In this document: piece by piece, positions 1,472-63,918 of the stretch | How positions within the stretch are numbered: the stretch's first letter is position 1 | Layout: each line of letters opens with the position of its first letter | Origin: a virus | Taxonomy: Duplodnaviria > Caudoviricetes | IMG/VR virus record: IMGVR_UViG_3300013902_000016 | Location: 401-64,400 of that record | Direction: 5' to 3' (one strand) | DNA: 64,000 bases | Notes under the pieces: model-generated | Seen by the model: only the letters and a program-made list of their open reading frames with translations | Database searches by the model: none | What the model was told of the DNA's origin: nothing | Made by a program: the position numbers and the translations under genes

Positions 1472-1488
1472 AAAAAGGAGATAGAAAA

Positions 1489-1668
1489 ATGAAATATCGT
1501 AAGAAACCCGTTGTTATTGAAGCATATCAGACAAAAGAAGAAAAAATTATTCACACACTCGAAGGTGACATGAAAGCCAGTGTTGGCGATTATATCATTA
1601 CTGGTGTAAACGGAGAACAGTATCCGTGCAAGTCAGATATTTTCGAAAAAACTTACGAAAAAGTATGA
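1489..1668 (+). CDS. Small conserved phage protein, 59 aa (PGDYG-like; not in ORF track)
   Basis: RBS aaggag; [12 protein letters not shown]...[35 protein letters not shown]. Confidence 0.75.
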
Positions 1669-3472: not shown

Positions 3473-3476
3473 TTAG

Positions 3477-7080: not shown

Positions 7081-7099
7081 TTATTGAAAGGACTGTACT

Positions 7100-16000: not shown

Positions 16001-19000
16001 TGGCGTATCATGCAAAATAAAAATACATTGTTAGCACATTGCGTAGGAGCTGGTAAAACATTTACTATGCAAGCAGCAGCAATGGAAATGAAACGATTGG
16101 GTATTTGTCAAAAACCATTGTTTGCTGTCCCTAAAAATGTCGTCAACCAGTTTGCAAAAGAATTCCGTATATTATACCCAAATGCAAATATTCTTATTGT
16201 AGATAGCGATACTTTACCTGCTGTACCTAATAGCACGCCTAAATCCGTAGTGAATAAAGAAACAGGCGAAGTAACGGAACAAGAGCTGACGCCTAAACAA
16301 AAAGAAAAGATAAACAATCAAAGAGTTAAACGAGTACGTGCCTTATCAAGAATTAAAACAGAAGATTGGGACGCCATTATTATTTCACATACCACACTTA
16401 ACAGGCTTGCAATGGCACCTGAAGCATATCAAGCATTCTACCAAGACCAAATAGAACAGCTTGAATTTGCTGAACGTGAAATAATGGCAATGGAAAACAA
16501 AGATGTAAATTCTAAACGGTTCTTAAAAGAATTGGAAAAGAAAAAACAGAATTTACAAGCTAAAATGGAAAAGGCTATGTCGGTAGAAAAGAAAGATATT
16601 GGCATAACATTTGAAGAACTAGGGATTGACCAAATTTTTGTTGACGAAGCGGATAAGTTTAAAAACTTGGCATTCACTACTAAACTAGGACGCATATCCG
16701 GCATTTCTTCTAATGGGTCACAGTCTGCCATGGATATGTTCATCAAAACACAGTACTTAACCAAACTGAATAATGGTCGTGGGGTAGTGTTTGCTACTGG
16801 CACACCAATTAGTAACACCATGAACGAAATGTATACCATGATGAGATACCTGAATATGGATGCCTTGAAAAATACAGGGAATGCATATTTTGATTCGTGG
16901 GTAAGTACGTTTGGACAAATCGTAACTAAGCAAGAACGTGACCCTAGCGGTGTAGGCTGGCGAAATACAAAAGCAGTTAAATTTGCCAACACCCCTGAAA
17001 TGGTACGGCAATTCCGTGAAGTTGCCGATGTAAAAAGACCGGAAGATATTAAAATAAAACGACCAAAAATAAAAGGCGGCAAACCGACAGTAATTGCAGT
17101 AGAGCCAACTGAAGCTTTAAAATCCTATATTAGAAACGACATTGCCGACCGTGTAAAAGCCATAAGAAGCGGAAACGGATTCGGGCAAAAAGGTGCAGAT
17201 AATATGCTTGCGGTAACCAATTCTTTGCGGCAAGCTTCTCTTGATATGCGTTTAATTAACCCAGCTTTAGGAGAAGAAGAAGGCGGCAAAGTACGTGCGT
17301 TGGCTGACCAAGTAACACAGGTATATGAAGATACAGAGAAAGAAAAAGGCGCACAAATCATCTTTTGCGACTTATCAACACCAAAGGGAACATCTGATAA
17401 AATTGACGAAAAAACAACGGATGACGACAACTCAAAAGAATCTCAAGACATGTATGCTCGTATCATGAAAGCCTTATTACAAAAAGGGATACCAAAGAAC
17501 CAAATTGCATTTGTTCATGATGCAAAAAACGACGAAGAAAAGCAACAGCTCTTTGAAAAAGTTGATAGTGGCGAACTAAGAGTGCTTATTGGCTCTACTG
17601 AAAAAATGGGCGCAGGGACAAACTTTCAGCACCATTTAGCAGCATTACACCATTTTACATGCCCATGGCGTCCTCGTGACCTTGAGCAGCGTGAAGGACG
17701 TATTTTACGTTACGGGAACATGTTTGATGAAGTACAGATTTTTGAATATGTAACCAAAGATAGCTACGATGCTAACATGTGGGAAAAGGTAAAAAATAAG
17801 GCAATGACTATAGCTCAAGCAATGAGCGGCGACTTAACTACCCGTATTGTTGACGATGCCGATAACGGAGCTATTACTTATGCAGAAGCCGAAGCACTTG
17901 CTACTGGGAACCCCTTGATGCGTGAAAAAACAGAAGTAGATACAGAAGTAATGCGATATAAAGGAATGTTGTCAGGACATTTACGTGAAGTATCGAATGC
18001 ACAAAGAGAAATAAAAATACATGCACCAGAAATCCCTAATAACAAAGCCAAAATGGAACGAATAAAAAAAGACATTGCACAGCGGCAGGATTTAAGCGGA
18101 GATAAATTTAAGGCAACAATCGACGGTAAAACATACACTGAAAGAAAGAATGCAGATAAGGCTCTTTTAACCGCCATAAAAGACTTGAAGAACAACACTG
18201 TTGAAGAAATCGGCAGCATTGGCGGTTTTGCTATTAAGGCAAGAAAAGAAGTCGATTATAGTAGTGATAAAGGCGTCCACTATATAACCAAAATCACCCT
18301 TGTAAAAAATTTCTCATATGAAGCTGGCCCATCTATAAAAAGCATTGAAAGCACGATAAACAGCAAACCTGAAACAACATTAAAAGACACGGAAAAAGAA
18401 ACGGAAAAATTAAACAATTCTATTAAAGCATGGGAAAAAACGGCAGGGGCTAAGTTTAAATATCAAGATAAGCTTGATGCGCTTTTGAAACGCCAAAAAG
18501 AAATCAACGACGAATTTGACAAAATAGAAAATAGCACAAACGAAAGCACAGAGAATAACGAAGAAACGACGCCAGCAGAGTATTCTGTACGTGATAACAG
18601 CAAAGAAATACAACGTTCCATACAGGAAGTCAAAGACGAAATAAAGAACGCTTTACCGACGGCAAAAGACGTTACAGAAGATGGCAATACAATTACATTT
18701 ATAATGCCGAATGATTCTAAAATTGTCGTAGATGTTCAAAATCAAATCGCACTGACAGCTGAACAATTAGCACAAGCAAAAAAAGACCACAACATAGACG
18801 GTAATGTTGTAGTCGAAGGGTATGCCAAGAAGTATGGCAAAGATGCCTATATTGCTTTGTCACAGGGTGCCCGAAAAGGTACAGGGTATCATGAAGTATA
18901 TCATGTGGCAGAAGATACCGTGCTGAATGACAAAGAAAAAGCAGCTCTTAGAAAGAAATATCCAAATGAAGAAATGCGTGCAGATAAATACGCCGAATGG

Positions 19001-22000
19001 GTGGAAGCAAGAAAACACGGCAAAGGTACGTTGTTTGGCAAATTATTCCGTAAGATACAAGATTTTGCAAAGAAAATGCAGGCTATTCTCACACGCACCG
19101 AAAACGTACATAACGTATTCCGCAAGATTGAAAGCGGTGAAGTATGGAACCGTAAAGCGGAAGAGTCTGAAGCGGCTAACGCAAAACTTGCTAAAGCTGC
19201 ACGGCAAAAGCTACAAGAAGATATGCAGGCGTTTAGCAAAAGTGTAGATGACTTTATGAATGGCAAGTTGCCACCCAAAGATGTAAAAGTTATGACTACA
19301 CCCTTAGTTATGAATCTTATTGGTGAAAAACTTTTGCCAATATATATACATACTAACGTTATGGAAAAAATACTAAAAGGCAAACATAGTGGAGAAATGA
19401 GTACTGGAATTGTCAAAAAGATTCCAAAAGAATTAACCGACCCATTAATGATATTAAAAGCCATTAATAACCAAGGCGTAGAATCTAAGAATCAAAAGAT
19501 TGTAGTTATTGATTTAAAAAACAATTATGGGGCAACAATTATGGTTCCGTTTATTATGGATGTAAAAGCAAATCGGTATGAATTATCCAATGTTATTGAA
19601 AGTGCATATGGAAGAGGAAATAAAAGACCGAATGACAAGTGGTATATCAAACGGTTAAAACGTGGCGATGCTGTTTATGCCAATAAAAAAAGAATCGACC
19701 ACTGGCTAAAAACACTTTCATTAGCCGAAGCTCATAATGGCTTACTAGTGGTCGATTCCTTTAATTTGTCTACGATTATACCAGATGAAACAGATTTAGG
19801 CAAGTTAAAAAGAGAAAATCCGACAAAATATTCTATACGAAAAACGCAAGATACCCCGCTTAACCCGAAAGAAAGAGAACAGGAACAACGCAAGGAAGAC
19901 ATACTGAAAGCAATAAACGATATAGTCCCTGTATATACGAAATCAGATGTAAAGAAAAACAGTACAACTGAAACATACTACGACAGACGGCAAAAAGCAG
20001 GCTTTGTAAAAACACCGACAATCCGTGAATATGGTAGAATCTTAGCACTCAATCTCGACCAGCAACTGAAGCTAAAGAACAATATGGAACTCACAACGAA
20101 CGTTAAGCAGGAACTGGAAAAGAACAAGGCTTATGCAGCAGTAATGGGCGATAAAATCAAAGATATGACGCCTATACAGGCACGTGCAGAGGGCGTATCT
20201 ATCTTTGGCTCGCTGTATTTCAATGGTAACGAAGAAGCCGCCGCCGCACGCTTCCCGAAATACTATGAAGCATTTAAAAATGCCTTGAAAGAAAATGAAG
20301 AATTGAATGATAAGGTAAACCATATTACTGAAATGATTGGTGATTACAAAGCACAGAATCCAGTGCTTAGAGCTAACAGCGGCATGCAGATGCATGACAA
20401 AAGAAAGAAGACTACTAAAGATAAAGTAAGTGACATTCTTAATTCTTTATATACTGACTTTGTTGATGAGCAACACCCACTTACTACGATAACTAAAATG
20501 GCAAAACGCCAAACCGGAAAAGCCATTATGTATAAATATGATGTACATAAACAAGCACTTATGGCAAAAGGTAATGCACAGGCAAAAACTAACCTGTTAT
20601 TGAACAGCGGCAAAAACAAGGAGTTTGCTATAAAAGCATTAAATGAAATGTTCCATGGGGCAATACAATATAAAGTCAATATGAATGATATTATGGATGC
20701 CATTAAAAATGTACCGCAGGAAGAACTTGAAAAAATCGGCGCAGACGATGCACGGCAGGGGCTGGCTAAATACTTAATTGCCATGCGTACAAATGAATTA
20801 AGCAAAGCCCTTGACAATGATTATGTCCGTCCTGACGGATTCGATGAAGAAGCATGTTACAATATTATTAAAAACGCACCTGAAAGCATAAAAACAGCCG
20901 CTAAAATGGTGTGGGACTTCAATAAGAACATGATAAACATCATGCAGCAGCAGGGACTTATCAATAAAAAATCTGCCGACACCATGAGAAAATATGCCCA
21001 TTACGTGCCGATGTATCACGATATGAGCGACATGCAGGATATTGATGATTTTATCGGAGCAGTAGGAAAAGGCGGCAGAGGATTCGTAGACATAAAGCCC
21101 AACATCTATGAAATAAAGGGCGGTAATGAACGAGCTATTATTGACCCAATAGAAAGCATGGTACGCATGACAGTAACGTTGTTAGATAAGTGTCAACGGA
21201 ACAATGTAGGCAAAACACTAGCACGTATTAACCAAGACTTTGAAGGAATGGGAAGTATTATTGCTAAAGACCCCACCTTGAAGCACGAAGACCCAAAAAA
21301 ATGTGCATTTTCCGTATATATAGGCGGCAAAAAGGTAATATACCGCACAACACCGGAAGTATATTCTATTCTTACACAAGTTGACGAAAACACAACAAAT
21401 ATGATTGCATCTATATGTCGATCAATGGCTAAGATGAAGCGTATTGGTGCCACCATTACTCCATCTTTTATTTGCCGAAATCTTATAAGAGATAGCATTT
21501 TTGCTGGAATAACATCGAAGACTGGTTTTATACCATTTGTTGATACATTCCGTGGTATGGAAAAATTAATTACTGATAAAGAATTTAAGGCACAGTATCT
21601 TGCAAGTGGAGCATCAATGGGCACGTTTATTCGTTCTGATATAGAAGGCTCAAAAGATTTATTAAAAGAAATTACAGGAGATAAATACAGCTCGTGGCCT
21701 AAAGGATTAAAACAAATAGCACAACTTACTAATGCAGTATGGGATTTTTACAAGCAAATAGGTGACGTTATTGAAGATAGTAACCGTGCTGGTGAATTTA
21801 TGCGTGCAAGAAAAAAAGGTATCGGGCTTGAAGAGGCTGGCTATCTTGCAAAAGAAGTAACGTTGAACTTTGGCAGGCATGGGAGAATTGGTAAAAAATG
21901 GAATAGATATATTCCGTTTTTTAATGCCACAATTCAGGGAACAGATAAACTTGTACGTGCATTTATAGATAACCCCGCAAGAACATCTTTTATGATTGCC

Positions 22001-22894
22001 GTTACAATTATCCTTCCATCGATTGTAGTATGGGCATTGGGAAATAGTAGTGACGATGACTGGTATCAAGACCTTGATGCAAACACGAAATATACTAATT
22101 GGTGTATCGGTATTGGTGATACGCACATCCTTATACCTAAACCGCAAGAAACCGGTATTTTGTTTGGTAGTGGCGTAGAAGCCGTACTCAATCAAATGAT
22201 AGGCAATGACCCACAGGCAATGAAACAATGGTCAAAACAATATTTATCCACAATACTCCCTGGCATTTTACCGGCAACACTTGATTCGTGGATTGAATGG
22301 ATTGCTGATTATAGTTTTTGGAAAGGGCGTAAACTAGTACCTAAAAGTTTAAGCGGTGAACCTTCTGAATACCAATATAATTCATATACAAGTGAAATTG
22401 CAAAAGCTCTTGGCAATACGGAAATTGCAAAATCGGTAAAAATGTCGCCTATTGCTATTGATAATTTTATTAGTGGCTATTTTGCTAGCTCTGGGCGTTT
22501 CATAGCAAATGCACTTAATTCGCCTGTTGCTTATTTAAGAGGTTCAGGAAGACCTGCTGAACCAGCTAAATATTGGTATGAAATGCCGTTTGTTGGATCA
22601 TTTGTTAGAAAAAATCATGAAATATCTGAATATCAAAACAGATTCTATGATTTAGCAAGTGACATGACGGATGATTATAATCGCATGAAACACGATAACC
22701 CAAAGGCAAAACCGCCTAAAGGGTATAAAGAAATGGAAACCGCAAAGAAAACAGTTAGCAAGTTAAATAAAGAAATACAGGGGATTAAATCAGATACAAA
22801 GATGGGGCCGGAACAAAAACTACAGCAGATAGAGTTGCGGCAAAATAAAATCCATCACTTTACAAAGAAATTCGTTACTCAATACGGCAGATAG
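7100..22894 (+). CDS. 5264-aa polyvalent DarB-like internal virion protein (SLT-like, M15-like peptidase, ParB-like, N6-MTase, SNF2 helicase, zincin, MuF-C/LPD38-like)
   Basis: ARESGG...AYNGAG (~8570-8800); SAARTPEHNAEVGGAENSYH..DAVD...HLH (~9030-9230); LDPSMGTG and NIPF (~14000-14205); AHCVGAGKT (~16035), DEADKFKN (~16643), GSTEKMGAGTN (~17590); HEVYH (~18890). Confidence 0.8.
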   Translation: MSKLSDYLLNNTNIQDVPEGAAPGYEDNSDSDSSSSSGSFFDSAKKWWHEYTDAVSEGRPMWKEEATVSPVDWGTAGGNGSMPTTFSNSTYQSMQNPDTTLSDVGNAIVDRVSEITPQPIVDAFTPQTIAPNWQPRPLDDSVYTDIPGTPTASGEFGALEDESVRKKRMDEAAQYMADNYPRAYSAMLGAVSGAANVAGGIRNAIGGENSDWILRNAEKSEEAMKKFRQQWENQYGDSGYLLNPNGLANDIGNGIGSSLPIMGLSLLAPEAAVGIGTRAITSALTRAGLGKLAGSKVGQALIKEVASSPMSTAGDTMAEYGSMVDELVQSGMSEEEAREKAKSIIPRNIALDTLTLPGELYVMKGAKGLGRRFQAASTDSIGKRIGKGMARAGVMSVGSAIPEGYQEGAQNALEDNVKGERNTNWFSPFSWNDDDLEAARAGAVGGAFMGIPGNVAKGMQTYSNTGNAGIDATVDAANEYGLDPKGLLSIGARESGGDDVTAIGSASPNAFQITDESASDYGVDEMYPEWKTDLKQNAEAAAFILTKKIEENGGDFWAGVRAYNGAGQAADEYLATVQNTYNNIPDGYVSSGGGSGIQPYNLPTQGADIDEQVSNLTPEFQSALPTIGGILNEMGLADGAAISSAARTPEHNAEVGGAENSYHVHNDAVDIVLPEGTTQEQADAVAERFRETGAFKEVLFHDAGSGYHLHLGGYNGGLNSRGGGVGGTVEGSYNGDGGAAYMEAQREADREYQQEQRDRDNAYQQEITNIMNDNSAETIADDVDKEMKDAKTQQEEGMKALTPDQQKEEIGNYLDSVSQDDISDADFNTLWDATQSNDPKQIQTAYQTMQVNKQQTAQQTKQPIQPVNTPVQQTEKQQPKQQPAQQVSMNNETTNPIAQATQGTQDNKQTQPLEQTVQPPLNTAPNSKPIQQGEIKNETTQSTEGTNNQNVNTESKENQRENAETVQAKESAENKGTTGITENVRTDNAKQNIPAQYKLVSADDLISSDMPAYPQQYQPRNRNRLGMVAQVEDMSNQLNPSAVVDPTGNVNMGSPVINSKGVVLNGNGRTMAIRKAYNKGNQSAQAYKQYLKDNAEKLGIDPAAVDKIKNPMIVRQVSDDAPIEDIIHSTAGGSRMSASEQAKSDAKKIRTSTLDKYKKENSPDLSAPSNREFVKSVLDDITTDADRNVMYTENGQITKEAIRRVQDALFARAYGDDSLLNRMTESTDDNIRIVSKVMLQCAPKVAKLKEGQEHGDFYSEYDVSNVITQAAKDLIEAREAGKPISYKLRENDMFEASKRKDDEAIKITLKFFDDNKRRPRRIQEYVNSLADYVIGMGSPKLETESNPLFDGGERMTMDELANFTEEEINGGRNSNLHVESKRTDTQTESVPQTVQEESGTAGNASIQKSNETEVKENTHLQPVKDAIANGSYKLIAKEAVEYANNVVSGLKDGILTKEQAQLRVNDLVSALQTKESNGNSVMGNIPKFMQRTILDALKMTKDAINGNIEYAGMSKKETQAAKMLDETIKGIKDGSITPAKADDELRNARVAAKENGKQSYAFSKKLKEAEDFIKDKNNYGTKQEEREATENKEKPEEKQEETVRQSVVQPFKEKADSILKAYMAKKISRTSAERRLVRISGDANAAYYGTFDGMEEVKSQNKLNFSERSAAQDYANDAMKKIKEEYHKRQEKKKAKGKPQNTKESQAQETKATESKEDHKTESEPERTSPDEIDLRTISIEDAERQAMEALGIKPHKKPVLPKPTKGSPKSRKRTPIKDDETLTLHIVDQSDEALAEALKVFDEEASKLNANPMFNPRLMTAAMKIGAIHLQRGANKFIDWLKAMNSTDSRLKSYAPAVWKALQVFPKNGTLNEKQMTSLIQFVGVMYHHGITDKTDLRKRFIAALGVKNARYFDTAYTAIVEYPTAEELKGIDTKEENTVEETSNNEDNKNSKEESNNEQITTDEENYHGFLDGKTEREQNEIRSALSMKHNPFGFADGFVPIKKTIESDARATRDGRRKLFSEEEFKDRIGRVKKRFKDIMYDYYKYLCSLDSQTLSKESNKETKESTEKGGNNNEQLPKSEGLSGGHTGNESAKMGGTEKAGEPVGKAGKDTGLERQEERKNSPSDSRRQAGGMERESDKTNADRPRSGNDSTGNGTRRDKQSVLTPAQKKNAKLSEVAGHNYHINVKESDESGSVREKITQNIAAIKLLKQLEAEGRRATPAEQAVLAKYSGWGTIADAFTDKYGKENAELKEILTEEEYKSAKKAATTAFYTDPKIVNKIWEAVEKLGFKGGRVLDPSMGTGVFFGCMPENIASKSALTGVEIDNLTGRIAQQLYQKSNIQITGFEKMKGLNNYFDLAISNIPFENIHVHDIEFDKYNYQIHNYFFAKAMQKVRPGGLVVFITGQGTMQSKKDAEVLRVELSKNADLIAAVKLPNTAFKGNAKTDVTTDILILQKRETPAKKSKYAQLWDKIQHVSVQTGKWMESTPLNEYYVKNKDNMLGNPIGTRTQYGEIKFVLDGKDVDLEERFDKLIEKLPNDVYQPKKNKQGDTVKATKTAIADSKMRDGAFVIKDGVPMQNDNGVLKEVKESKANKGRTESYIRLRNIMQELIAAEIDPKSTKEKLNVLRKNLNRFYDEFVKKYGYLNERKNHNAFVSDPSYGTVEALERCEYTKEKGKAAKISKVEKTAIFKERTIEAIKDITRADTAADALAASLNNKGTVDIDYMAQLTGRDKADVIQELHGSIYKNPVSGNYETSEEYLSGNVLEKLEYAEEAAKTNPAYNENVKALQKVQPIKLQPQEIYASLGASWIPQSDVEDYANSLIDNDEAVKVLYHPALGTWEVQTTGFIDPVSEYQTNRRSFVEILDAALNNKDIKITHTEDKKQVQSKEDIEETTLANQKLEDIRNNFSKWLWEDDERAERLSDYYNRTFNNTALRQYSGSHLNFKGMNASIKLRDYQKNAIWRIMQNKNTLLAHCVGAGKTFTMQAAAMEMKRLGICQKPLFAVPKNVVNQFAKEFRILYPNANILIVDSDTLPAVPNSTPKSVVNKETGEVTEQELTPKQKEKINNQRVKRVRALSRIKTEDWDAIIISHTTLNRLAMAPEAYQAFYQDQIEQLEFAEREIMAMENKDVNSKRFLKELEKKKQNLQAKMEKAMSVEKKDIGITFEELGIDQIFVDEADKFKNLAFTTKLGRISGISSNGSQSAMDMFIKTQYLTKLNNGRGVVFATGTPISNTMNEMYTMMRYLNMDALKNTGNAYFDSWVSTFGQIVTKQERDPSGVGWRNTKAVKFANTPEMVRQFREVADVKRPEDIKIKRPKIKGGKPTVIAVEPTEALKSYIRNDIADRVKAIRSGNGFGQKGADNMLAVTNSLRQASLDMRLINPALGEEEGGKVRALADQVTQVYEDTEKEKGAQIIFCDLSTPKGTSDKIDEKTTDDDNSKESQDMYARIMKALLQKGIPKNQIAFVHDAKNDEEKQQLFEKVDSGELRVLIGSTEKMGAGTNFQHHLAALHHFTCPWRPRDLEQREGRILRYGNMFDEVQIFEYVTKDSYDANMWEKVKNKAMTIAQAMSGDLTTRIVDDADNGAITYAEAEALATGNPLMREKTEVDTEVMRYKGMLSGHLREVSNAQREIKIHAPEIPNNKAKMERIKKDIAQRQDLSGDKFKATIDGKTYTERKNADKALLTAIKDLKNNTVEEIGSIGGFAIKARKEVDYSSDKGVHYITKITLVKNFSYEAGPSIKSIESTINSKPETTLKDTEKETEKLNNSIKAWEKTAGAKFKYQDKLDALLKRQKEINDEFDKIENSTNESTENNEETTPAEYSVRDNSKEIQRSIQEVKDEIKNALPTAKDVTEDGNTITFIMPNDSKIVVDVQNQIALTAEQLAQAKKDHNIDGNVVVEGYAKKYGKDAYIALSQGARKGTGYHEVYHVAEDTVLNDKEKAALRKKYPNEEMRADKYAEWVEARKHGKGTLFGKLFRKIQDFAKKMQAILTRTENVHNVFRKIESGEVWNRKAEESEAANAKLAKAARQKLQEDMQAFSKSVDDFMNGKLPPKDVKVMTTPLVMNLIGEKLLPIYIHTNVMEKILKGKHSGEMSTGIVKKIPKELTDPLMILKAINNQGVESKNQKIVVIDLKNNYGATIMVPFIMDVKANRYELSNVIESAYGRGNKRPNDKWYIKRLKRGDAVYANKKRIDHWLKTLSLAEAHNGLLVVDSFNLSTIIPDETDLGKLKRENPTKYSIRKTQDTPLNPKEREQEQRKEDILKAINDIVPVYTKSDVKKNSTTETYYDRRQKAGFVKTPTIREYGRILALNLDQQLKLKNNMELTTNVKQELEKNKAYAAVMGDKIKDMTPIQARAEGVSIFGSLYFNGNEEAAAARFPKYYEAFKNALKENEELNDKVNHITEMIGDYKAQNPVLRANSGMQMHDKRKKTTKDKVSDILNSLYTDFVDEQHPLTTITKMAKRQTGKAIMYKYDVHKQALMAKGNAQAKTNLLLNSGKNKEFAIKALNEMFHGAIQYKVNMNDIMDAIKNVPQEELEKIGADDARQGLAKYLIAMRTNELSKALDNDYVRPDGFDEEACYNIIKNAPESIKTAAKMVWDFNKNMINIMQQQGLINKKSADTMRKYAHYVPMYHDMSDMQDIDDFIGAVGKGGRGFVDIKPNIYEIKGGNERAIIDPIESMVRMTVTLLDKCQRNNVGKTLARINQDFEGMGSIIAKDPTLKHEDPKKCAFSVYIGGKKVIYRTTPEVYSILTQVDENTTNMIASICRSMAKMKRIGATITPSFICRNLIRDSIFAGITSKTGFIPFVDTFRGMEKLITDKEFKAQYLASGASMGTFIRSDIEGSKDLLKEITGDKYSSWPKGLKQIAQLTNAVWDFYKQIGDVIEDSNRAGEFMRARKKGIGLEEAGYLAKEVTLNFGRHGRIGKKWNRYIPFFNATIQGTDKLVRAFIDNPARTSFMIAVTIILPSIVVWALGNSSDDDWYQDLDANTKYTNWCIGIGDTHILIPKPQETGILFGSGVEAVLNQMIGNDPQAMKQWSKQYLSTILPGILPATLDSWIEWIADYSFWKGRKLVPKSLSGEPSEYQYNSYTSEIAKALGNTEIAKSVKMSPIAIDNFISGYFASSGRFIANALNSPVAYLRGSGRPAEPAKYWYEMPFVGSFVRKNHEISEYQNRFYDLASDMTDDYNRMKHDNPKAKPPKGYKEMETAKKTVSKLNKEIQGIKSDTKMGPEQKLQQIELRQNKIHHFTKKFVTQYGR
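9909..10040 (+). CDS. Candidate nested 43-aa basic ORF in +1 frame of giant gene
   Basis: aaggaga upstream of ATG; MKQRKAPKAPTIKMSTPNLKKISVKMPKPYKPKKVPKIKGQRA. Confidence 0.35.
   Translation: MKQRKAPKAPTIKMSTPNLKKISVKMPKPYKPKKVPKIKGQRA
11205..11342 (+). CDS. Candidate nested 45-aa ORF in +1 frame of giant gene
   Basis: ggagg 9 nt before ATG; MADETVIYMSKVKELTPKQKAYLRQCKKKAEQQETQAYKKAMKQK. Confidence 0.35.
   Translation: MADETVIYMSKVKELTPKQKAYLRQCKKKAEQQETQAYKKAMKQK
13329..13604 (+). CDS. Candidate nested 91-aa TnpV-like ORF in +1 frame of giant gene
   Basis: aaaggagg 8 nt before ATG; helical ...NPIKQMQIDQEAEMIAQEMAQEEINNLY C-terminus reminiscent of TnpV. Confidence 0.45.
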   Translation: MNNYQRAKDLAEDIQEMNPQKWEELKKQGNPLEKLEKILDLNDKKKERIRRQIVEDRREEWNGNPIKQMQIDQEAEMIAQEMAQEEINNLY

Positions 22895-56840: not shown

Positions 56841-57704
56841 ATGCAGGAGTTTTCAGCACTTAATATGACAGAAAATGCTGTTACAGCCATACAAAAAATG
56901 CAAAAAAGCATAGAAAGTACGGCGTCTAATTTTAGCGGAGCAGCGTTTCCGACAGAAAACTTACAAATCGGTATGCTGTGTATGCGTACTGATTTAAATA
57001 ATAATATATATAAACTAACAGCAATCAATCCTGCAAAATGGGAGCAAGTGGGCGTAGCGGCTACAACTGCAACTAAATTATATACGGCTCGCACGCTTAA
57101 ACTTACAGGAAAAGCGGTTGGATCTGTTTCCACAGATTTTTCCGGCGATGCGTCTATAAACGTAACAAGCGTAACGGCTGATACTGCAAAAAAAGCGGAT
57201 AGTGCGACAACAGCAACAACAGCTACCAACGCAACAAATGCCGATAATGCAAAAAAAGCAGTAAGTGCTACAAGTGCTACAAGTGCTACTAAACTAGACC
57301 ATAATGTTAACATTAGTTTGACTGGGGCTGTAACCGGGAATGTCACAACCAATTTAGCAGATGGGACACTTAATCTGCAAATGGCAGGAGATGCCAACCA
57401 ATTTAAAAACATTACGGTAACCGGCTCACAACAGCCCAAAAAATATATAGATTTACAAACAAAGAGGACAAGTTCTATTGACTCAAGTTGGACGGAAGGA
57501 AGCGGCAACATATCAACAGCATACAGAAGGTATGAATGTGAAGATAATGAAATCCCAGCAGGAACGTACAGCCTGCAGGATATATTGCAGCGGCTTGTTA
57601 ATGCGTGCCACAAACACTATATAAGAGGTATTACAGTAAAAAGTAATTGTGATTGTAAGTGTGATTGTAAGTGTGATTGTACTGGCGGCAACGATGAAGA
57701 ATAA
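56841..57704 (+). CDS. Tail-fibre-like protein with Cys-rich C-terminus (putative rSAM substrate)
   Basis: A/T-rich fibre repeats ATKLYTART; ends NCDCKCDCKCDCTGGNDEE (57645-57680). Confidence 0.65.
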   Translation: MQEFSALNMTENAVTAIQKMQKSIESTASNFSGAAFPTENLQIGMLCMRTDLNNNIYKLTAINPAKWEQVGVAATTATKLYTARTLKLTGKAVGSVSTDFSGDASINVTSVTADTAKKADSATTATTATNATNADNAKKAVSATSATSATKLDHNVNISLTGAVTGNVTTNLADGTLNLQMAGDANQFKNITVTGSQQPKKYIDLQTKRTSSIDSSWTEGSGNISTAYRRYECEDNEIPAGTYSLQDILQRLVNACHKHYIRGITVKSNCDCKCDCKCDCTGGNDEE

Positions 57705-58584
57705 CATCAAGTTAGGAAGAATATGTATACCACTCGGCATTAAGTGTAATTTATCGTGTGAATATTGTTATCGAGATATATGCCGAAAAGAAATACCGCG
57801 TAAAGCGACAAACAAGTTTTTGTCATATTTAAAATCGTTAGACACAAGCACTTATGCGGTCATATTTAGTGGCGGGGAACCGTTGCTTTATATAGATACA
57901 ATAAGGAAAATAACCGGTATCCTTCCTAAACATATACACAAAAAAGTAATGACAAACGGGTTACTTCTTACTGAAGAATTGGTTGATTATTTTAATAATA
58001 ACGATTTTGAGGTACATATATCACACGACGGCAAACATACCAAAGAATTGCGGGGACAAGACGTATTTAAAAACAAGTTACAACTTATAAAAAAAATACG
58101 ATATTTACGAATTGTATCGGTTATCAGCAATCAAAATACAAATGTTATGAAGGTATACCAATATATACAAAACAAGTTGAATAGACCGTTTTATTTCGAA
58201 GCAAGCCCGATTATCCCAACTGGGGAAAATGATAATTTAATAACAGGGTTTAATTATGATAGGTTTGAAAAAACATTGGCGGAAGTTTTGAGGATACGAA
58301 ATAAATCGCCATTCGAATGGTATCACAACAAACCGAGTGGTATGGGATTAAATGTGCTATTGGATGGCAGTATTGTAGGAATGGGCACGCTTAATAAATA
58401 CGGTACGGTATGGGATACAGAAGAAACCATTCGCAACAACTTTTTAGCCAAAGAACAAAAAGGCATTGCATATTGTCAGCAATCAATATGTTCTATAAAA
58501 CCATGTTCTATGAATAAAAGCCTTGCTTGTCAACACATGTGCAGAATAAATCGTATACGACACGATATAAATGATGAGGTGTAA
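57694..58584 (+). CDS. Radical SAM protein 1
   Basis: CNLSCEYC, SGGEP, TNG, SHDG; short Cys-rich C-terminus. Confidence 0.9.
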   Translation: MKNNIKLGRICIPLGIKCNLSCEYCYRDICRKEIPRKATNKFLSYLKSLDTSTYAVIFSGGEPLLYIDTIRKITGILPKHIHKKVMTNGLLLTEELVDYFNNNDFEVHISHDGKHTKELRGQDVFKNKLQLIKKIRYLRIVSVISNQNTNVMKVYQYIQNKLNRPFYFEASPIIPTGENDNLITGFNYDRFEKTLAEVLRIRNKSPFEWYHNKPSGMGLNVLLDGSIVGMGTLNKYGTVWDTEETIRNNFLAKEQKGIAYCQQSICSIKPCSMNKSLACQHMCRINRIRHDINDEV

Positions 58585-58586
58585 AT

Positions 58587-59648
58587 ATGATAAATAGAGT
58601 TAACTTGATGATGGGGAATAAATGTAATTTCCATTGTCGGCATTGTATACAAAACGATTCAGTAAAAGACCAACCATTAGAATTACCTAGTGATAGGGTA
58701 ATAAAATATATCAAACGATTGGCAAATATTCGCCCTCAAGATAAAGGCAAGCTAGATATATGTTTTTGGGGTGGCGAACCACTAATGTACGTGGATGTAA
58801 TACGATATGTCGTGGAAAAGGTAAAGAATGCAGAATATACAATTGTAACCAATGGATGGTTGCTAAACGAAACCATAGTTAACTATTGCAATGAACACAA
58901 TATAACCGTAGTGCTTAGCAATGATGGTATACACACATCCAAAGTTCGTGGTAAAAACATGCTTGAAAACAACCGGTTTATACACTTGTTTAAACGCCTA
59001 GAAAATAAAGGTGTTGATTCTTGTATCACGGCATATAATCAAGATTATTATGCGTTATGGGATTATATAGAATCAAAGCTAGGCAAAGATATACCAATTT
59101 TTCATGAAATGCTAGAATGCACATGGGACATGCCAAAAGATTTGTATGCGTTTAACCTAGAAAACTATCAAAAAACAATGGATACGATTGTGGAGAATGC
59201 ATATAACAAGCTAATACACGGAGAAATAGGCAGAGAATATATGCTTATTTCAGATACAGTAAGTCGCATGTGTAAAATTGTTGATGGCAAACCGGTACAA
59301 GAATATAAGTGTTCCCAAATGCGTAATATGATAAGCATTGATTTAAAAGGCAATGTATATGCATGTCATAATGCGTGCAAGGTATTGGGGACGGTGACAG
59401 AGGATCGAGAAGTACTGAAAGAACGATACAACAAATATCTTCAAAATAAAAAGTTGGATGATTGTAAGCTGTGCGAATGGCGTAGCGTGTGTGGTAATGG
59501 GTGCCCTAATTCATACGATGTTTTCCCTGGCAAAGCCTCGTCTTGTGAGGTAAAAAAAATATTTATGTCAGCTTGCATGAGCTTTCTAAAGAAATTACAA
59601 AACTCGCTAGAGGATGTAGACTTGGAGGATAGTTATGATTGTGATTAG
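58587..59648 (+). CDS. Radical SAM/SPASM protein 2
   Basis: CNFHCRHC, WGGEP, TNG, SNDG; C...IDLKGNVYAC...CKLCEWRSVCGNGC SPASM. Confidence 0.92.
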   Translation: MINRVNLMMGNKCNFHCRHCIQNDSVKDQPLELPSDRVIKYIKRLANIRPQDKGKLDICFWGGEPLMYVDVIRYVVEKVKNAEYTIVTNGWLLNETIVNYCNEHNITVVLSNDGIHTSKVRGKNMLENNRFIHLFKRLENKGVDSCITAYNQDYYALWDYIESKLGKDIPIFHEMLECTWDMPKDLYAFNLENYQKTMDTIVENAYNKLIHGEIGREYMLISDTVSRMCKIVDGKPVQEYKCSQMRNMISIDLKGNVYACHNACKVLGTVTEDREVLKERYNKYLQNKKLDDCKLCEWRSVCGNGCPNSYDVFPGKASSCEVKKIFMSACMSFLKKLQNSLEDVDLEDSYDCD

Positions 59649-60327
59649 ACGCCCGTTACAAAATGGCGAAAAGAATAAAGTGGATTATGATATTGATTTG
59701 AATAACGACAGTATCACATTTTCTTTTAGTACAACGTATATGGGGCAAGATGTAAAAGATAGCGTATCAATCCCGTTCAGCACATATAAGGACGTCATAT
59801 TGCATTTGTCTTTACAATTAACACATAAAATAGAAACAAGGTTATATCCGCTATATGAATTGCAATCGCGGTATAACGTAATTAGCGAAACAAACAATGA
59901 TGCGTTTGTTCTTGCACGCATATCTATTAATGAAACTTGTGATGACATAGTAATCTTTTTAAACAGCCCGACGGATTACACCTGTAAGGTAGCCAAGACG
60001 ATAGACTGCGAACCAAACACATCAAAATCGAAAATGATGATGATGTATTCGCCGTATTATACCAAAAGAGCTGAAAATATTCGTAAAAAGTGGGATATGA
60101 TGGCAAACCTTGATATATACGATACCGTTACATATCTTGAATCACAAGTAGATGCATTAACAAAAATCGCCTTGGGTAATAACGGTGAAGATGTTAAAGA
60201 TGTATTAAAAGCGGCTGATGAACATAGCGTGTTTAATATAAAAAGCAAGGAAAAAATGATTAACGAAATGCACAAAGATAAGGCAAAAATTCGTTCGTTG
60301 CAAAAGGAGTATTATGACAAAGCGTAA
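59635..60327 (+). CDS. Hypothetical protein inside rSAM cluster
   Basis: Overlaps both neighbours; no recognised motif. Confidence 0.6.
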   Translation: MIVIRRPLQNGEKNKVDYDIDLNNDSITFSFSTTYMGQDVKDSVSIPFSTYKDVILHLSLQLTHKIETRLYPLYELQSRYNVISETNNDAFVLARISINETCDDIVIFLNSPTDYTCKVAKTIDCEPNTSKSKMMMMYSPYYTKRAENIRKKWDMMANLDIYDTVTYLESQVDALTKIALGNNGEDVKDVLKAADEHSVFNIKSKEKMINEMHKDKAKIRSLQKEYYDKA

Positions 60328-61300
60328 AAAAATAGTACTAAAACTTGGTGGTATGTGCAACTTACATTGCAAAAATTGCCATTGCATGCCACTTAAATTT
60401 GAGTATAATCCGGATATTATAGACCGGATCAATCGCAATCAAATAGAGGTTATTCATCTTGGCGGTGGAGAACCTTTTATGTACTTTGATTTAATCCGCA
60501 AAATAGTCCCAAAGATACATGTAAAGCAAATCGGATTAACCACAAACGGCACGTTATTAACCGATGAAATAATTGAATTTTGCAATAAGTATAATATACG
60601 AGTTGCTTTTTCTTATGATGGTCAGAACAGCAAACGTGACCCCGTTCTACCTGATTATGAAAGAATAAAAAAACTAAAACACATTGGTACATCCTCTGTT
60701 TTCTATCATGGCAATACCGATATACGACAGATGGAAAACGACTTACACAGGCTTGGCGAAATTTACGATATAGATTCGTGTAAAAGAAACATCACATTTT
60801 TGCCAGCATTTGTACATCAAACAAAAAATGCACCAAACAGCGACACTACAAGAGAAGATGCTAAAAAATATATTTTGCAAGTAGGTCGTTTATTCGAACT
60901 TGGATTTATACAGTACAACAAAAATCAAAAATATTCATTGGGTGCTGTATTTAACTTTATTCGTCATTATTTGAATCACAAACCATATACGATTGGATGC
61001 AGGTGTTGCAATCCTAACAATGTGTCGTTGGCTATTGATGGACGCTTTATACTTTGCCCATATGGAAATGATTTTGTTGGCGATATATATAAAGGCGTAG
61101 ACTGGGGAGCAGTAGAAAAACATATACCGGATAAATGCAAGGCATGTGCATTGCGTAAATATTGCGGTACGTCCTGCGTAGCTCAAATTACGGATAACGA
61201 ATGTTATATTTTTAGATGTTTGTACAGACATTATAAAAAGTTGTTAAAAAAGTACAACATAAACGAAAAAGAAATTCTTAGTTTAGATTTTGATTCATAA
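60314..61300 (+). CDS. Radical SAM/SPASM protein 3
   Basis: CNLHCKNC, GGGEP, TNG, SYDG; GRFILC...CKACALRKYCGTSC. Confidence 0.9.
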   Translation: MTKRKKIVLKLGGMCNLHCKNCHCMPLKFEYNPDIIDRINRNQIEVIHLGGGEPFMYFDLIRKIVPKIHVKQIGLTTNGTLLTDEIIEFCNKYNIRVAFSYDGQNSKRDPVLPDYERIKKLKHIGTSSVFYHGNTDIRQMENDLHRLGEIYDIDSCKRNITFLPAFVHQTKNAPNSDTTREDAKKYILQVGRLFELGFIQYNKNQKYSLGAVFNFIRHYLNHKPYTIGCRCCNPNNVSLAIDGRFILCPYGNDFVGDIYKGVDWGAVEKHIPDKCKACALRKYCGTSCVAQITDNECYIFRCLYRHYKKLLKKYNINEKEILSLDFDS

Positions 61301-61313
61301 AGGAGATAATACT

Positions 61314-61484
61314 ATGGAAAAAGAACATGTAAACGTATTTAGTGAAAATGGCGAAATAACAGCTGCTCCTGCATTTGACAGCCCTGAAGAAGAAGCAAAA
61401 TACTACGAAGAAGAACAAAAACGCAAAGAACAAGAAGAAAGCCACAAAGCACCAGTATTTAGTGAAAATGGAGATGCGGAATAG
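61314..61484 (+). CDS. Small acidic 56-aa protein
   Basis: RBS aaggag; VFSENG at both ends. Confidence 0.5.
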   Translation: MEKEHVNVFSENGEITAAPAFDSPEEEAKYYEEEQKRKEQEESHKAPVFSENGDAE

Positions 61485-61492
61485 GTGATTCT

Positions 61493-62314
61493 ATGGACTT
61501 AACTAAAAACGTCAACGAAATAATTACAGATATGGCAGCTGTAATAGATAACTTAAAAACCGCACTGGATGGTAAACTCGGAAAAAGTGATAATGCGGTA
61601 TCAGCTACTAAGCTACAGACAGCTCGTAAAATTAACGGCGTCGCATTTGACGGTACAAGCAATATATCTGCACCGTGGTCAATTGTTAATAACTCAGTAA
61701 AAATAGATTTAACAGATTCCAAGTATGACCAAGATACCTGGTATCCAGTAAAATACAATGGTTTCACTCTGCAAGACGTAAATATAACGCACACATGCTA
61801 TGCTATCCTTGGTGATGGCGATAATCCGACGTGGGGTTCCCACAATAATGGGTTCACGTCTATTAAGTCGGTGACGCTAACAAACTCAGTTTGGGGAAAC
61901 TATAGTAAAGTAGCATATTTTACTTTAAATCAAGAGTTGTGGGTAAAGAATAATCAATCCCATCCATCAATTATTCCGTACTTATTTACAGAAGATGCGA
62001 ACGGCTTTTTCTGGTATCTGCGTGGCGGCGGTATTTATTATCTGTATCTTGAGAATAAAAGTTTACAAGCTACTATATATACAAGTAGAACAACTTTTGC
62101 CAATAATCATTATACAGAGCCAACTAAAAATCCGCCAGCAACTAATATATCGAACAGATTAGTTACATCTGATATGCTACAGACCGTAGCTACGTCCGGG
62201 TCATATACCGACTTGAAGAACAAGCCGACAATCCCAAGCAAGGTATCTCAACTGACTAATGACAGCGGGTACTTGACTGGTTCAACTGGTGTAACTTTTA
62301 CAATCACAGATTAA
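61493..62314 (+). CDS. Tail fibre/receptor-binding protein
   Basis: SATKLQTARKINGVAFDGT and SGSYTDLKNKPTIPSKVSQLTND fibre motifs. Confidence 0.65.
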   Translation: MDLTKNVNEIITDMAAVIDNLKTALDGKLGKSDNAVSATKLQTARKINGVAFDGTSNISAPWSIVNNSVKIDLTDSKYDQDTWYPVKYNGFTLQDVNITHTCYAILGDGDNPTWGSHNNGFTSIKSVTLTNSVWGNYSKVAYFTLNQELWVKNNQSHPSIIPYLFTEDANGFFWYLRGGGIYYLYLENKSLQATIYTSRTTFANNHYTEPTKNPPATNISNRLVTSDMLQTVATSGSYTDLKNKPTIPSKVSQLTNDSGYLTGSTGVTFTITD

Positions 62315-62326
62315 GGAGCTGATAGA

Positions 62327-62989
62327 ATGGCAAATCCAATAAAAAAATGCGTGCTTCATGGTGCAGTCAATAACGAGACCGTCGACCTGTACCCACGCAC
62401 GAATTTAGCGTCGGTCAGTGACATGACAGCGTTTGCAAGAACGCTCAACGGAGCGGCAGACGCAGCGGCGGCACGAAATACGCTTGGAACCACGACCCAA
62501 GCGGCACTCATTAATATTATCTATCCGGTCGGCTCGGTAATCACGCTGACAAATGACACCGACCCGAACAAAATTTACAGCGGTACAACGTGGGTCAAAA
62601 TGGATGCAGGGCGTGTACTCGTATCAGCGGGCACGTACACCGAGGGAAGCGATACGTATACTTATACACTCGGCGACAAGGGCGGCGAAGCCAAGCATCA
62701 ACTCACTGTCGATGAGTTAGCACAACATAATCATTCAGCTAGTATAAGCAGTGTTGGTAGCCATGCTCATGGTATCCGTCGCAGACTTGGTTACACTAAC
62801 GATGCAAATGAAGTATCATCTTGGGGTACTGGTCCAGCCTATTATAGACTGAGCGAAGTAGCGCAAGCCTCAACGGAATATGCCGGAGGCTTTAATCAAA
62901 CAATTTCAGTAAATAATACCGGCGGCAACAAATCGCATGAGAATAGACAGCCATATACTGTTGTCAACATATGGCACAGAACAGTTTAA
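62327..62989 (+). CDS. Variable tail fibre (gp10-C/collar-like), expressed shufflon cassette A
   Basis: IYPVGS...GTTW...GRVLV...GGEAKHQLTVDEL, HxH repeats, HENRQPY..V..WHRT. Confidence 0.8.
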   Translation: MANPIKKCVLHGAVNNETVDLYPRTNLASVSDMTAFARTLNGAADAAAARNTLGTTTQAALINIIYPVGSVITLTNDTDPNKIYSGTTWVKMDAGRVLVSAGTYTEGSDTYTYTLGDKGGEAKHQLTVDELAQHNHSASISSVGSHAHGIRRRLGYTNDANEVSSWGTGPAYYRLSEVAQASTEYAGGFNQTISVNNTGGNKSHENRQPYTVVNIWHRTV

Positions 62990-63284
62990 GCGGTGCGTTT
63001 CCACATTTGTACGACAGTGTACGGCGAACGGTTTTCATGTGGTAAATTTCCGCCAGTGTTCGAGATACTCCCTGTGTGACTGTGGCTTGCATTTATAAAT
63101 GTATTCCCGTTGCCCTGTTTACCGCCTTCAGCAGATACATGACTGCTTCCGTATTTTTTTACACTGATAATCCCGTCAGCTGTTCTATTATTGTATTCGG
63201 GTGCAAAATTATCATATATATTACCGCTAAGAGACGAGCTGCTTGTAACTATGCTATGTGTATGTTGTGCTAACTCATCGACAG
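62986..63284 (-). other. Silent shufflon cassette B
   Basis: SVDELAQHTH...HENRSPYTVVQMWKRTA; stop overlaps cassette A stop. Confidence 0.8.
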
Positions 63285-63299
63285 ACAATTATTTATACT

Positions 63300-63571
63300 C
63301 TGTCGATGAAATGCCAACTCATAGTCATAGTGCGAGTGTCTCGACTGTCGGAAACCACACACATACAGTTGGATGGGCAGATGAAAATTCACCAAAACAA
63401 AATGGAATTGATTCAGAATCAAATACTCAGCAAAATCCAAAAATGTATACAACTACATCAGAAAACGGCATGCATACACACACGGTTACAATTAACAACA
63501 ACGGAAACGGAATAAAAGCAAACAACATGCAGCCGTATACAGTCGTTAACTACTGGAAGCGTACAGTCTAA
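63300..63571 (+). other. Silent shufflon cassette C
   Basis: SVDEMPTHSH...NNMQPYTVVNYWKRTV. Confidence 0.8.
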
Positions 63572-63837
63572 GCCGTTCTCTTCCATCTCGACACTACTTC
63601 ATACGGCATGCGGTTTTCATGCTTAAAATTACTGCCAGTCAGTGCAATGCTTGCGCTAAGACTATGCGCCCCTGCGTTTGTCGTACTTCTGTACCATCTT
63701 GGTGGATTGTCTGTACCATCGAAGGCGTTTTGCCCATTACCACTTGCAGTATCCGAATCGCCGACGCCGTGCGAATGATTCCCAACACTGCTGATAGAAA
63801 TACCGTGACCATGTGACGCTAACTCATCGACAGTGAG
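63568..63837 (-). other. Silent shufflon cassette D
   Basis: LTVDELASHGH...HENRMPYEVVSRWKRTA; stop overlaps cassette C stop. Confidence 0.8.
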
Positions 63838-63918
63838 CTTTGAAAATAGTAAAAAAGTCAAGCGCAATCACGACAAACTGTTATAAATGCATGGCAAATC
63901 TAGGTTAAAGGCGGGAAC

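Follow-up and report, generated by a model that had tools for sequence, protein, structure and literature searches.

A phage tail-fibre gene ending in a cysteine ladder is linked to three radical SAM enzymes that probably modify the fibre tip

Why would a phage keep three radical SAM (S-adenosylmethionine) enzymes directly behind one of its tail-fibre genes? The question is raised by positions 56,841 to 61,300 of a 64,000-nucleotide stretch of DNA (the window), which covers positions 401 to 64,400 of the IMG/VR virus record IMGVR_UViG_3300013902_000016. The 64.4-kb record is rated complete by CheckV and encodes an integrase, a terminase, a portal and a major head protein; the phage which carries the radical SAM (rSAM) cassette is temperate. 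Five plus-strand genes (56841-61300) stand head to tail in the order fibre, rSAM1, rSAM2, helper, rSAM3, and the fibre protein ends in a run with a cysteine at every second residue, called here the Cys ladder. Sequence comparison and structure prediction suggest that the three enzymes probably modify the tip of the fibre chemically, most likely by cross-linking it.

The genes of the cassette, together with three segments at the end of the fibre protein, are as follows.

56841..57704, plus strand: tail-fibre-like protein and putative substrate, 287 amino acids (aa); open reading frame (ORF), weak PHROG tail-fibre matches, orthologues
57552..57617, plus strand: leader-like segment IPAGTYSLQDILQRLVNACHKH, residues 238-259 of the fibre, amphipathic helix ending in HxH; conservation and AlphaFold2 (AF2) prediction
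57645..57680, plus strand: Cys ladder N-C-D-C-K-C-D-C-K-C-D-C, residues 269-280, 12-bp tandem repeat; DNA sequence
57681..57701, plus strand: acidic C-terminal tail TGGNDEE; NDEE invariant in four orthologues
57694..58584, plus strand: rSAM1, 296 aa, ATG at 57694; PF04055 at 42.3 bits, seven Cys invariant in 13/13 orthologues
58587..59648, plus strand: rSAM2, 353 aa, radical SAM/SPASM; PF04055 at 44.4 bits, TIGR04085, seven SPASM Cys invariant in 16/16
59635..60327, plus strand: helper or partner protein, 230 aa, no known family; homologues in the same cassette, AF2 model
60314..61300, plus strand: rSAM3, 328 aa, radical SAM with a 7-Cys SPASM motif; PF04055 at 36.3 bits, Cys invariant in 12/12

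The five genes are packed closely. The ATG of rSAM1 lies within the final codons of the fibre gene (11-nt overlap), rSAM1 and rSAM2 are separated by a 2-nt gap, and the rSAM2/helper and helper/rSAM3 junctions are overlaps of 14 nt each. The Shine-Dalgarno-like sequences GAGGTG, GGAGGA and AAGGAG lie upstream of the last three cassette starts. An earlier note on this DNA, made from its letters alone, had described three rSAM genes and one unknown gene chained to a 287-aa fibre ORF, and the coordinates, overlaps and Pfam scores agree with that description. The stretch is present in four DNA sequencing runs from one study, and no RNA run is listed for it. We lean towards the view that the cassette is a late-operon maturation unit for a virion fibre.

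Is the first gene a fibre gene, and is its unusual end real? The protein has an N-terminal attachment domain, an Ala/Thr-rich shaft with fibre repeats, and a C-terminal module made of a helix, an HxH motif and the Cys ladder. Its PHROG tail-fibre matches are weak (1.7e-5 to 2.9e-4), and over its first 67 aa it is homologous to the fibre of Achromobacter phage 2-1 (E 7e-7). Tail genes lie on both sides, and in relatives the gene comes after gpJ-like Phage-tail_3 genes. Homology and gene position thus identify the 287-aa protein as a predicted phage tail fibre. Its C-terminus is NCDCKCDCKCDC-TGGNDEE, or in full N-C-D-C-K-C-D-C-K-C-D-C-T-G-G-N-D-E-E, and positions 57645-57704 of the DNA spell aat (tgtgattgtaag)x2 tgtgattgtact ggc ggc aac gat gaa gaa taa. 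Both the 12-bp repeat and the final NCDCKCDCKCDCTGGNDEE of the ORF, reported in the earlier note, can be read directly there and are therefore real. Nor is the ladder a product of chance: no other real gene on this strand of the window contains a (C-X)n>=3 run. It has six Cys here and five in a relative (L007), the two fibres being 81-82% identical and the difference arising through the 12-bp repeat; such variation in length, even among close relatives, is more in keeping with an iterative enzyme than with a metal site whose geometry is fixed.

The end of the fibre is also what relatives have in common. In orthologous cassettes whose enzymes are 86%, 51% and 49% identical, the fibre bodies measure 287, 355 and 147 aa and the C-terminal end is shared: it consists of G-T-Y-S-L, a hydrophobic helix (L..LV), the H-x-H motif, a linker, N-C-x-C-x-C... 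and N-D-E-E. Across four divergent fibre orthologues G241, T242, Y243, L249, L252, V253, H257 and H259 are invariant, and the stretch IPAGTYSLQDILQRLVNACH, which had been proposed as a leader, turns out to be the most conserved portion of the module. Besides the six ladder Cys, the C-terminal module of the window has a seventh, C256. More generally, the portable module has the consensus GTYxLxxLLxxLV helix, HxH, short linker, (Asn/Asp-Cys)n ladder and short acidic tail, and the window belongs to a three-enzyme, gut-type clade with the NDEE tail. When the module alone was modelled with AF2, a helix was predicted at module residues 30-41 with a pLDDT (the score that AF2 predicts for the local distance difference test) of about 87, and the ladder was disordered in the monomer (pLDDT < 50); the model as a whole is of low confidence (mean pLDDT 56.6) and is used here solely for this contrast between helix and disorder. 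A disordered ladder beside a confident helix was counted in favour of enzymatic modification of the ladder.

A profile of the module (eight sequences, 66 positions) was searched against 1.84 billion protein representatives. It matched 203 proteins or families, at 50% identity, with E <= 0.001, including 52 with E <= 1e-10; the fibre ORF of the window scores E 2.8e-18. Among the best 150 of the 203 matches, 132 have the helix-HxH anchor, and 127 of these also have a CxC ladder; the ladder statistics refer to these 127 families. Between the ladder Cys the residue is Asn at 50% and Asp at 33% of positions, against a combined background of 13%, and Asn stands directly before the first ladder Cys in 78% of families. 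The ladder has 2 to 8 Cys, most often 4, and is joined to the helix and HxH by a linker of 4-19 residues. The protein ends 1-21 residues past the ladder, in a D/S/G-rich tail, in 103 of the families. The shorter ladders include that of the L014 fibre, which is minimal (...GRCRCDRDHG). Another locus, L024 (IMGVR_UViG_3300010283_000006, 3557-4722), has two module-bearing ORFs on opposite strands, tail to tail, just before its rSAM cassette: a 273-aa fibre ending ...NCDCCGSDS and a 115-aa fragment that ends in ...NCNCCAGDSDS. Possibly the two are alternative ladder tips that can be inverted.

Do the module and the enzymes occur together elsewhere? Co-occurrence, a check proposed in the earlier note, was examined from both sides. 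Starting from the module, a degenerate pattern at the DNA level, covering the helix and HxH but neither ladder nor enzyme, matched eight IMG/VR contigs, five of them new; rSAM homologues lie directly downstream in 5/5 of the new contigs, and the helper is also present in 4/5. Four further informative contigs, taken from the profile matches, have rSAM genes within 3.5 kb in 4/4 cases. Altogether, rSAM homologues lie within 3.5 kb of the module at 9/9 loci, and a helper homologue was detected at 7/9. One contig, L029, was considered as a module fibre without rSAM genes and then dismissed: the edge of the contig holds a C-terminal rSAM3-like fragment 3.3 kb upstream. Another, P0136, is too short to inform and stands outside the count. 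In the window itself the module and the helper each occur once, and rSAM genes three times.

Starting from the enzymes, an alignment of rSAM2 found at least 162 IMG/VR relatives, and 80 phage loci among them were kept. The module is detected by hidden Markov model (HMM) at 25 of the 80, and a same-strand ORF ending in a Cys ladder, or in a ladder plus a Hint domain, at 59. The opposite strand served as the control: ORFs with a terminal ladder number 104/2,332 on the same strand and 14/2,737 on the opposite strand, whereas a plain count of Cys-dense windows was too noisy, given the alternative frames of high-GC DNA. With the enzymes collapsed at 50% identity, 20 of 29 lineages have a locus with a ladder. 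Every enzyme lineage comes with a leader type of its own (...TITANRKTFNCNCACRC in one case, ...GHCTYCTHCGHCTHCS in another), which fits co-evolution of enzyme and leader, though kin share features anyway. The pairing of cassette and module is found again in many phages that are unrelated to each other, and is kept down to 49-51% enzyme identity despite fibre bodies of 147-413 aa and permuted gene order. The earlier note had named rSAM clusters lacking Cys-rich neighbours as a finding that would count against its proposal; every fetched cassette of this type adjoins a module ORF, and the proposal was not refuted in this way. Searches of GenBank phages with the cassette (blastn) and the 72-aa module (tblastn) gave no match.

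Two relatives show further arrangements. In one at 44% identity (L012, Logan DRR806333 contig, 9684-13166), a diversity-generating retroelement, consisting of an Mtd-like protein with mtd_2nd and a reverse transcriptase, lies directly after the rSAM cassette, so that two fibre-altering systems adjoin. In L030 (Logan ERR11478429 contig, 1365-7425), module proteins of 214 and 474 aa flank a single cassette of three rSAM genes and a helper, which suggests that one enzyme set may serve two fibres.

What kind of enzymes are these? All three exceed the gathering score of 29.5 bits for Pfam Radical_SAM (PF04055), and the Cys of the CX3CX2C motif are invariant in every orthologue aligned (12-16 sequences per enzyme, from loci fetched in this analysis): C18/C22/C25 in rSAM1 and C15/C19/C22 in rSAM3, for example. 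The SPASM motif (TIGR04085/PF13186) was taken as C-x9-15-G-x4-C ... C-x2-C-x5-C-x3-C ... C, which corresponds to two auxiliary clusters. In rSAM2 it scores 38 bits against a TIGR04085 cut-off of 27, with C242, C260, C293, C296, C302, C306 and C320 invariant. In rSAM3 it was recognised by inspection, with C231, C248, C275, C278, C284, C288 and C297 all invariant. The full 7-Cys motif is absent from rSAM1: C261/C266/C271/C283 are invariant there, and the Cys of G-x4-C is missing in all 13 sequences, which suggests a single twitch-like auxiliary cluster. The original observation of SPASM-type Cys clusters in two of the three enzymes is thus borne out. The Fe-S ligands are invariant in all three orthologue groups, and therefore all three enzymes are under selection. 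They all belong to phrog_1802, and their pairwise identity is only 28-33% over the N-terminal half, so they are old paralogues and not recent duplicates. At the L014 locus (5903-6889) the gene call for the rSAM1 orthologue begins after CX3CX2C and the upstream open frame holds the motif, which is probably a mis-called start and not a degenerate enzyme.

The curated profiles that score highest are those of peptide and protein maturases: the PapB family, the quinohemoprotein amine dehydrogenase maturase (QhpD), TIGR04084, SCIFF, CcpM and the anaerobic sulfatase maturase (anSME). For the PapB family (NF047865, cut-off 340 bits), rSAM2 scores 106.2 bits over its full length, rSAM1 57.2 and rSAM3 43.6; the best NCBIfam match of rSAM3 is TIGR04084, at 56.7 bits against a cut-off of 225. 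The best scores for QhpD (TIGR03906) and SCIFF (TIGR03974) are 65.6 bits against 453 and 53.3 against 425, and no NxxcB model is among the NCBIfam matches listed for the three enzymes. The closest solved structures to rSAM2 are 8vpo and then CteB (5wgg). The nearest profiles and structures (the PapB family, QhpD and SCIFF/CteB) are thus maturases that cross-link peptides or proteins, and not cofactor or nucleotide enzymes; the earlier note had said that a place in cofactor or nucleotide-modification clades would speak against its proposal. The CX3CX2C motif begins at residues 13-18, leaving no room in any of the three for an N-terminal, PqqD-like recognition element (RRE) of the kind known from RiPPs, the peptides that are made on ribosomes and altered after translation.

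The helper gives no match in Pfam, NCBIfam or PHROG, and 15 homologous clusters were found among 5.8 billion proteins. Every cluster whose context was fetched sits in the same type of cassette; one is in a prophage that NCBI labels uncultured Phascolarctobacterium. A genome-contig profile search with the helper alignment gave no confirmed relative. In the AF2 model (pLDDT 79.6) the helper has an N-terminal beta-sandwich and a helical C-terminal part, the latter end of the protein holding the invariant motif D-I-Y-x-T-V-T-Y-L-E-S-Q-V-D-A-L-T. The beta-sandwich is weakly similar to SPP1 gp22 and to the shoulder domain found in receptor-binding proteins (RBPs) of lactococcal phages, including that of phage p2 (Z 5.1, 4.7 and 4.0). 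The idea that the helper is a discrete RRE is unsupported: Foldseek gave no match at E <= 0.001 and VIA-align pointed, at Z about 5, to SPP1 gp22 and the RBP shoulder, although a missing RRE match does not exclude an RRE. The helper is a core part of a trio of fibre tip, helper and enzymes, and we infer that it may hold or present the fibre end to the RRE-less enzymes.

Does the ladder stay on the fibre? Some relatives with a second C-terminal domain are informative here. In 24 of the 127 module families (19%) the ladder is followed by a predicted self-cleaving Hint domain of 139-194 aa that starts C-[FI]-[VI]-x-G. In the fibre of the Phascolarctobacterium prophage, the ladder ...S-N-C-N-C-N-C-S-D-S-D-G-S is followed by a Hint-like domain, on the evidence of structure comparison: residues 276-413 of this match (P0016) have a TM-score of 0.70-0.82 to Hint clusters. 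In the Achromobacter phage 2-1 fibre, the Pfam family Hom_end_hint scores 46.6 bits against 32.1 from residue 306, right after N-C-N-C-D-C-N-C-S. The fibre of the window has no Hint domain. Self-cleavage by Hint would keep the ladder attached to the fibre and create a C-terminus a few residues past the last Cys, which is the same end as that of the Hint-less fibres; this predicted product argues that the ladder stays on the fibre at a free C-terminus and against release of a free peptide. The mature fibre would then always end in the ladder and a few residues, with or without Hint.

Two of the carriers, both with distant versions, are cultured phages. Achromobacter phage 2-1 (OQ974181.1, 29634-33140, genes 00027-00029) has the NCNCDCNCS fibre with its Hint domain, a helper homologue between the fibre and rSAM genes (E 2.6e-10 with the helper profile) and a 452-aa rSAM protein. 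In Ralstonia phage RSP15 (ORF045-048), a side tail fibre closes with ...NTNCQCGN, and an rSAM gene lies two genes further on. The cassette genes of both phages are annotated only as hypothetical or radical SAM proteins. With these two carriers the question of fibre modification becomes directly testable.

How might the cassette work? The fibre would be made with its C-terminal module, in which the amphipathic helix ending in HxH would serve as a leader-like recognition element. Late in infection, before or during fibre assembly, the helix would be recognised by the helper, the enzymes or both, and the flexible (Asn/Asp/Lys-Cys)6 ladder would enter the rSAM active sites. The three non-redundant, RRE-less enzymes, translated from one gene chain, would act on the ladder together with the helper. 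The chemistry would be of the ranthipeptide type: with the Cys thiol held on an auxiliary cluster, a 5'-deoxyadenosyl radical would take a hydrogen from the side chain of an adjacent Asn or Asp, giving a Cys-S-C thioether, and this would be repeated along the ladder. The product would be a stapled fibre end, resistant to reduction and to proteases, in which HxH may still bind metal once the trimer is assembled. The data themselves show how the genes are arranged, that the cofactor motifs are intact, that the module is conserved and that module and enzymes occur together from either starting point; the choice of the ladder as substrate, the formation of thioethers, the part played by the helper and the consequence for the virion are points that we infer. 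We consider the scheme as a whole, with the fibre module modified by three rSAM enzymes and a helper to give ranthipeptide-like thioethers, somewhat likelier to be right than wrong, judging from sequence patterns and gene context. The idea of an rSAM/SPASM modification of a Cys-rich fibre end in the style of a RiPP, put forward in the earlier note, draws support from the two-way linkage, the maturase-like profiles and the conserved leader.

A thioether from Cys to a neighbouring Asn or Asp seems the best candidate for the linkage, since the enrichment of these two residues in the ladder matches the acceptor residues of the enzyme NxxcB (PMC9389541). The strict alternation of the ladder allows only odd spacings between Cys and acceptor, so the CX3D spacing of PapB is impossible (position +4 from any ladder Cys is another Cys, and the mismatch had been remarked on from the start), whereas N/D-x-x-C occurs n-1 times. 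In the ladder of the window these motifs are N269-x-x-C272, D271-x-x-C274 and D275-x-x-C278. Three enzymes might make different linkages, work in different registers or form links between chains. A bolder version of the proposal, which we regard as possible and rather doubtful, is that they make a defined set of thioethers, possibly inter-chain, and so turn the tip, at the host-binding end of the virion, into a needle that is locked by covalent bonds and proof against redox change and proteases. A structural protein of a virus would then be cross-linked by radical enzymes for the first time, and the step would form a new class of virion maturation. On this version the thioester from Hint cleavage might, in relatives with a Hint domain, also ligate or cyclise the C-terminus that it exposes.

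How does this compare with known systems? PapB, a SPASM enzyme that is short and RRE-less, forms Cys-to-Asp thioethers again and again along a repetitive core, and QhpD is a radical SAM/SPASM enzyme that makes Cys-to-Asp/Glu thioethers in a structural protein subunit (QhpC) and not in a natural product; both use Asp/Glu acceptors. PapB/PapA (freyrasin) is the best-scoring curated family for rSAM1 and rSAM2, but at 57 and 106 bits both lie far from its cut-off, and its CX3D repeats differ from the phage ladder. QhpD/QhpC differs in score as well, and in having one enzyme, another substrate fold and a subunit of a periplasmic enzyme as its target. CteB/SCIFF (PDB 5wgg/5why) is likewise a SPASM thioether maturase for a Cys-rich C-terminal peptide, and is second among the structures closest to rSAM2, but the score is again low (53 bits against 425) and CteB has an N-terminal RRE-like domain that the phage enzymes lack. 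Among phage proteins, HxH metal sites are found in trimeric fibre and spike tips, at the T4 gp37 needle and the P2 gpV apex. The conserved HxH near the distal end of the present fibre resembles them, but those tips lack a Cys ladder and enzymes of their own.

The closest precedent for a whole-protein substrate is CrpC of Methanococcus voltae, a radical SAM/SPASM enzyme that makes thioethers of the ranthionine type on the C-terminal Cys repeats of the protein CrpA (Dieter et al. 2026, PMC13692751). As in the phage, the substrate is an adjacent whole protein with C-terminal Cys repeats, and the N-terminal region of CrpA serves recognition. CrpC differs in belonging to TIGR04463 and having an RRE, neither of which is found for the phage enzymes, in acting alone with no helper of the phage type, and in being cellular and not viral; CrpA has 17-residue repeats with C-x-x-Q/D in place of the strict CxC ladder. 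The streptococcal radical SAM RiPP (RaS-RiPP) enzyme NxxcB joins Cys in NxxcA by a beta-thioether to the Asn three residues upstream, and tolerates Asp, Ala and Gln there (PMC9389541). The phage ladder is an overlapping run of N/D-x-x-C with the same residue preferences, N/D making up 83% of intervening positions, whereas NxxcA is a small secreted peptide with a single motif and no virion context. The phage system thus appears to work like ranthipeptide and protein thioether maturation while lying within no curated family's cut-off.

Several observations weigh against this proposal. None of the three enzymes attains the cut-off of any curated maturase family, and TIGR04463 (the CrpC family, rSAM_vs_C_rich, cut-off 525 bits) has no match at E <= 0.01 in the whole 64.4-kb genome. 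None has an RRE domain at the N-terminal position, and the helper is unlike an RRE in its weak structure matches. The scheme itself gives no reason for having three enzymes. No ladder ORF lies within 6 kb at 21 of the 80 enzyme-first loci, or in 9 of the 29 lineages; kin share features, and locus counts overstate the number of independent events. Finally, CxC arrays are a classical metal motif, and the conserved HxH adjoining the ladder recalls the metal sites at the tips of trimeric fibres.

This last point leads to a different view of the tip, in which the HxH and CxC ladders of three chains coordinate a column of metal or Fe-S and the rSAM enzymes insert clusters or metal, or do something else. 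Cys at every second residue come to lie on one face of a beta-strand, which is a classical arrangement for binding metal, and the HxH is invariant directly upstream of the ladder. Yet simple metal loading has no known role for SPASM-type maturases, which are linked to the module in both directions; Asn or Asp at 83% of intervening positions is not needed to bind metal; and ladders range from 2 to 8 Cys even between close relatives, some having only two. We think a metal needle unlikely. Accessory genes often gather downstream of tail fibres, and the rSAM genes might be such a moron-type insertion with an unrelated substrate; the 21 loci with no ladder nearby would suit this. It is hard to reconcile with the gene overlaps and coupling to the fibre gene, with the 9/9 result of the module-first test, or with a pairing kept across 29 enzyme lineages, different phage types and permuted gene orders, and incidental co-location seems very unlikely.

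The ladder or its neighbours might also be the substrate of some other chemistry, such as formylglycine-like or thioaldehyde oxidation, epimerisation, or C-C, C-O or inter-chain links, perhaps with a different reaction for each enzyme. Three distinct and anciently separated enzyme types are kept together, rSAM1 lacks the Cys of the first auxiliary cluster, rSAM2 is aligned along its whole length by the anaerobic sulfatase maturase profile (E 2.6e-14), and with no family cut-off reached a function is not transferable from a known family. The top scores nevertheless belong to thioether-forming families, and the Asn/Asp enrichment matches known thioether acceptors (PMC9389541), so other chemistry appears improbable to us. 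The layout of leader plus core is RiPP-like, and some carriers are no longer than 147 aa (L005) or, among the profile matches, 69-137 aa, as they might be if the C-terminal peptide were a true RiPP precursor, cut off its carrier and released as a toxin or signal instead of forming part of the virion. However, no cassette examined has a protease or exporter gene, Hint self-cleavage keeps the ladder on the fibre fragment, and the carriers have fibre N-termini and sit within tail modules. We give a released peptide scarcely any credence, and thioether modification of the fibre-bound ladder is the reading we prefer.

Beyond the cassette, the fibre module continues with two further entries.

61314..61484, plus strand: small acidic ORF, 56 aa, with two VFSENG repeats, cassette membership uncertain; ORF and junction
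61493..62989, plus strand: two more tail-fibre genes (273 aa; 220 aa with Gp10_C), end of the fibre module; PHROG tail-fibre matches, PF21939

The small ORF lies directly 3' of rSAM3, has a strong Shine-Dalgarno sequence (AAGGAG) before its ATG, and has no family match in Pfam or PHROG. Within positions 62327-63867 the Gp10_C-type gene is followed by three alternative C-terminal cassettes in alternating orientation, which share inverted repeats around CTGTCGATGAGTTAGCACAACATAATCAT (encoding ..VDELAQH..) at 62706, 63256, 63300 and 63806; they look like a multi-cassette invertible, shufflon-like fibre tip. Elsewhere in the window, 7100-22894 is one ORF of 5264 aa, a giant polyvalent protein that takes up a quarter of the phage genome.

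A literature search that combined phage, tail fibre, radical SAM/SPASM, thioether and RiPP found no paper describing the system, and no published description was found of a virion-fibre substrate, a helix-HxH leader, a dedicated helper, a multi-enzyme set or Hint-fused forms. Thioethers made by radical SAM/SPASM enzymes have been described in small peptides that are secreted and in very few proteins of cells (QhpC, CrpA), and no paper was found that places this chemistry in virus particles. If the proposal is true, it describes a widespread maturation step of phage fibres, given the 203 module families and the at least 162 related IMG/VR loci, with a bearing on how fibres fold, how they withstand the gut or the environment and how they bind hosts. 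The helix and (N-C)n ladder, with their own enzymes, would amount to a compact genetically encoded tag for stapling proteins.

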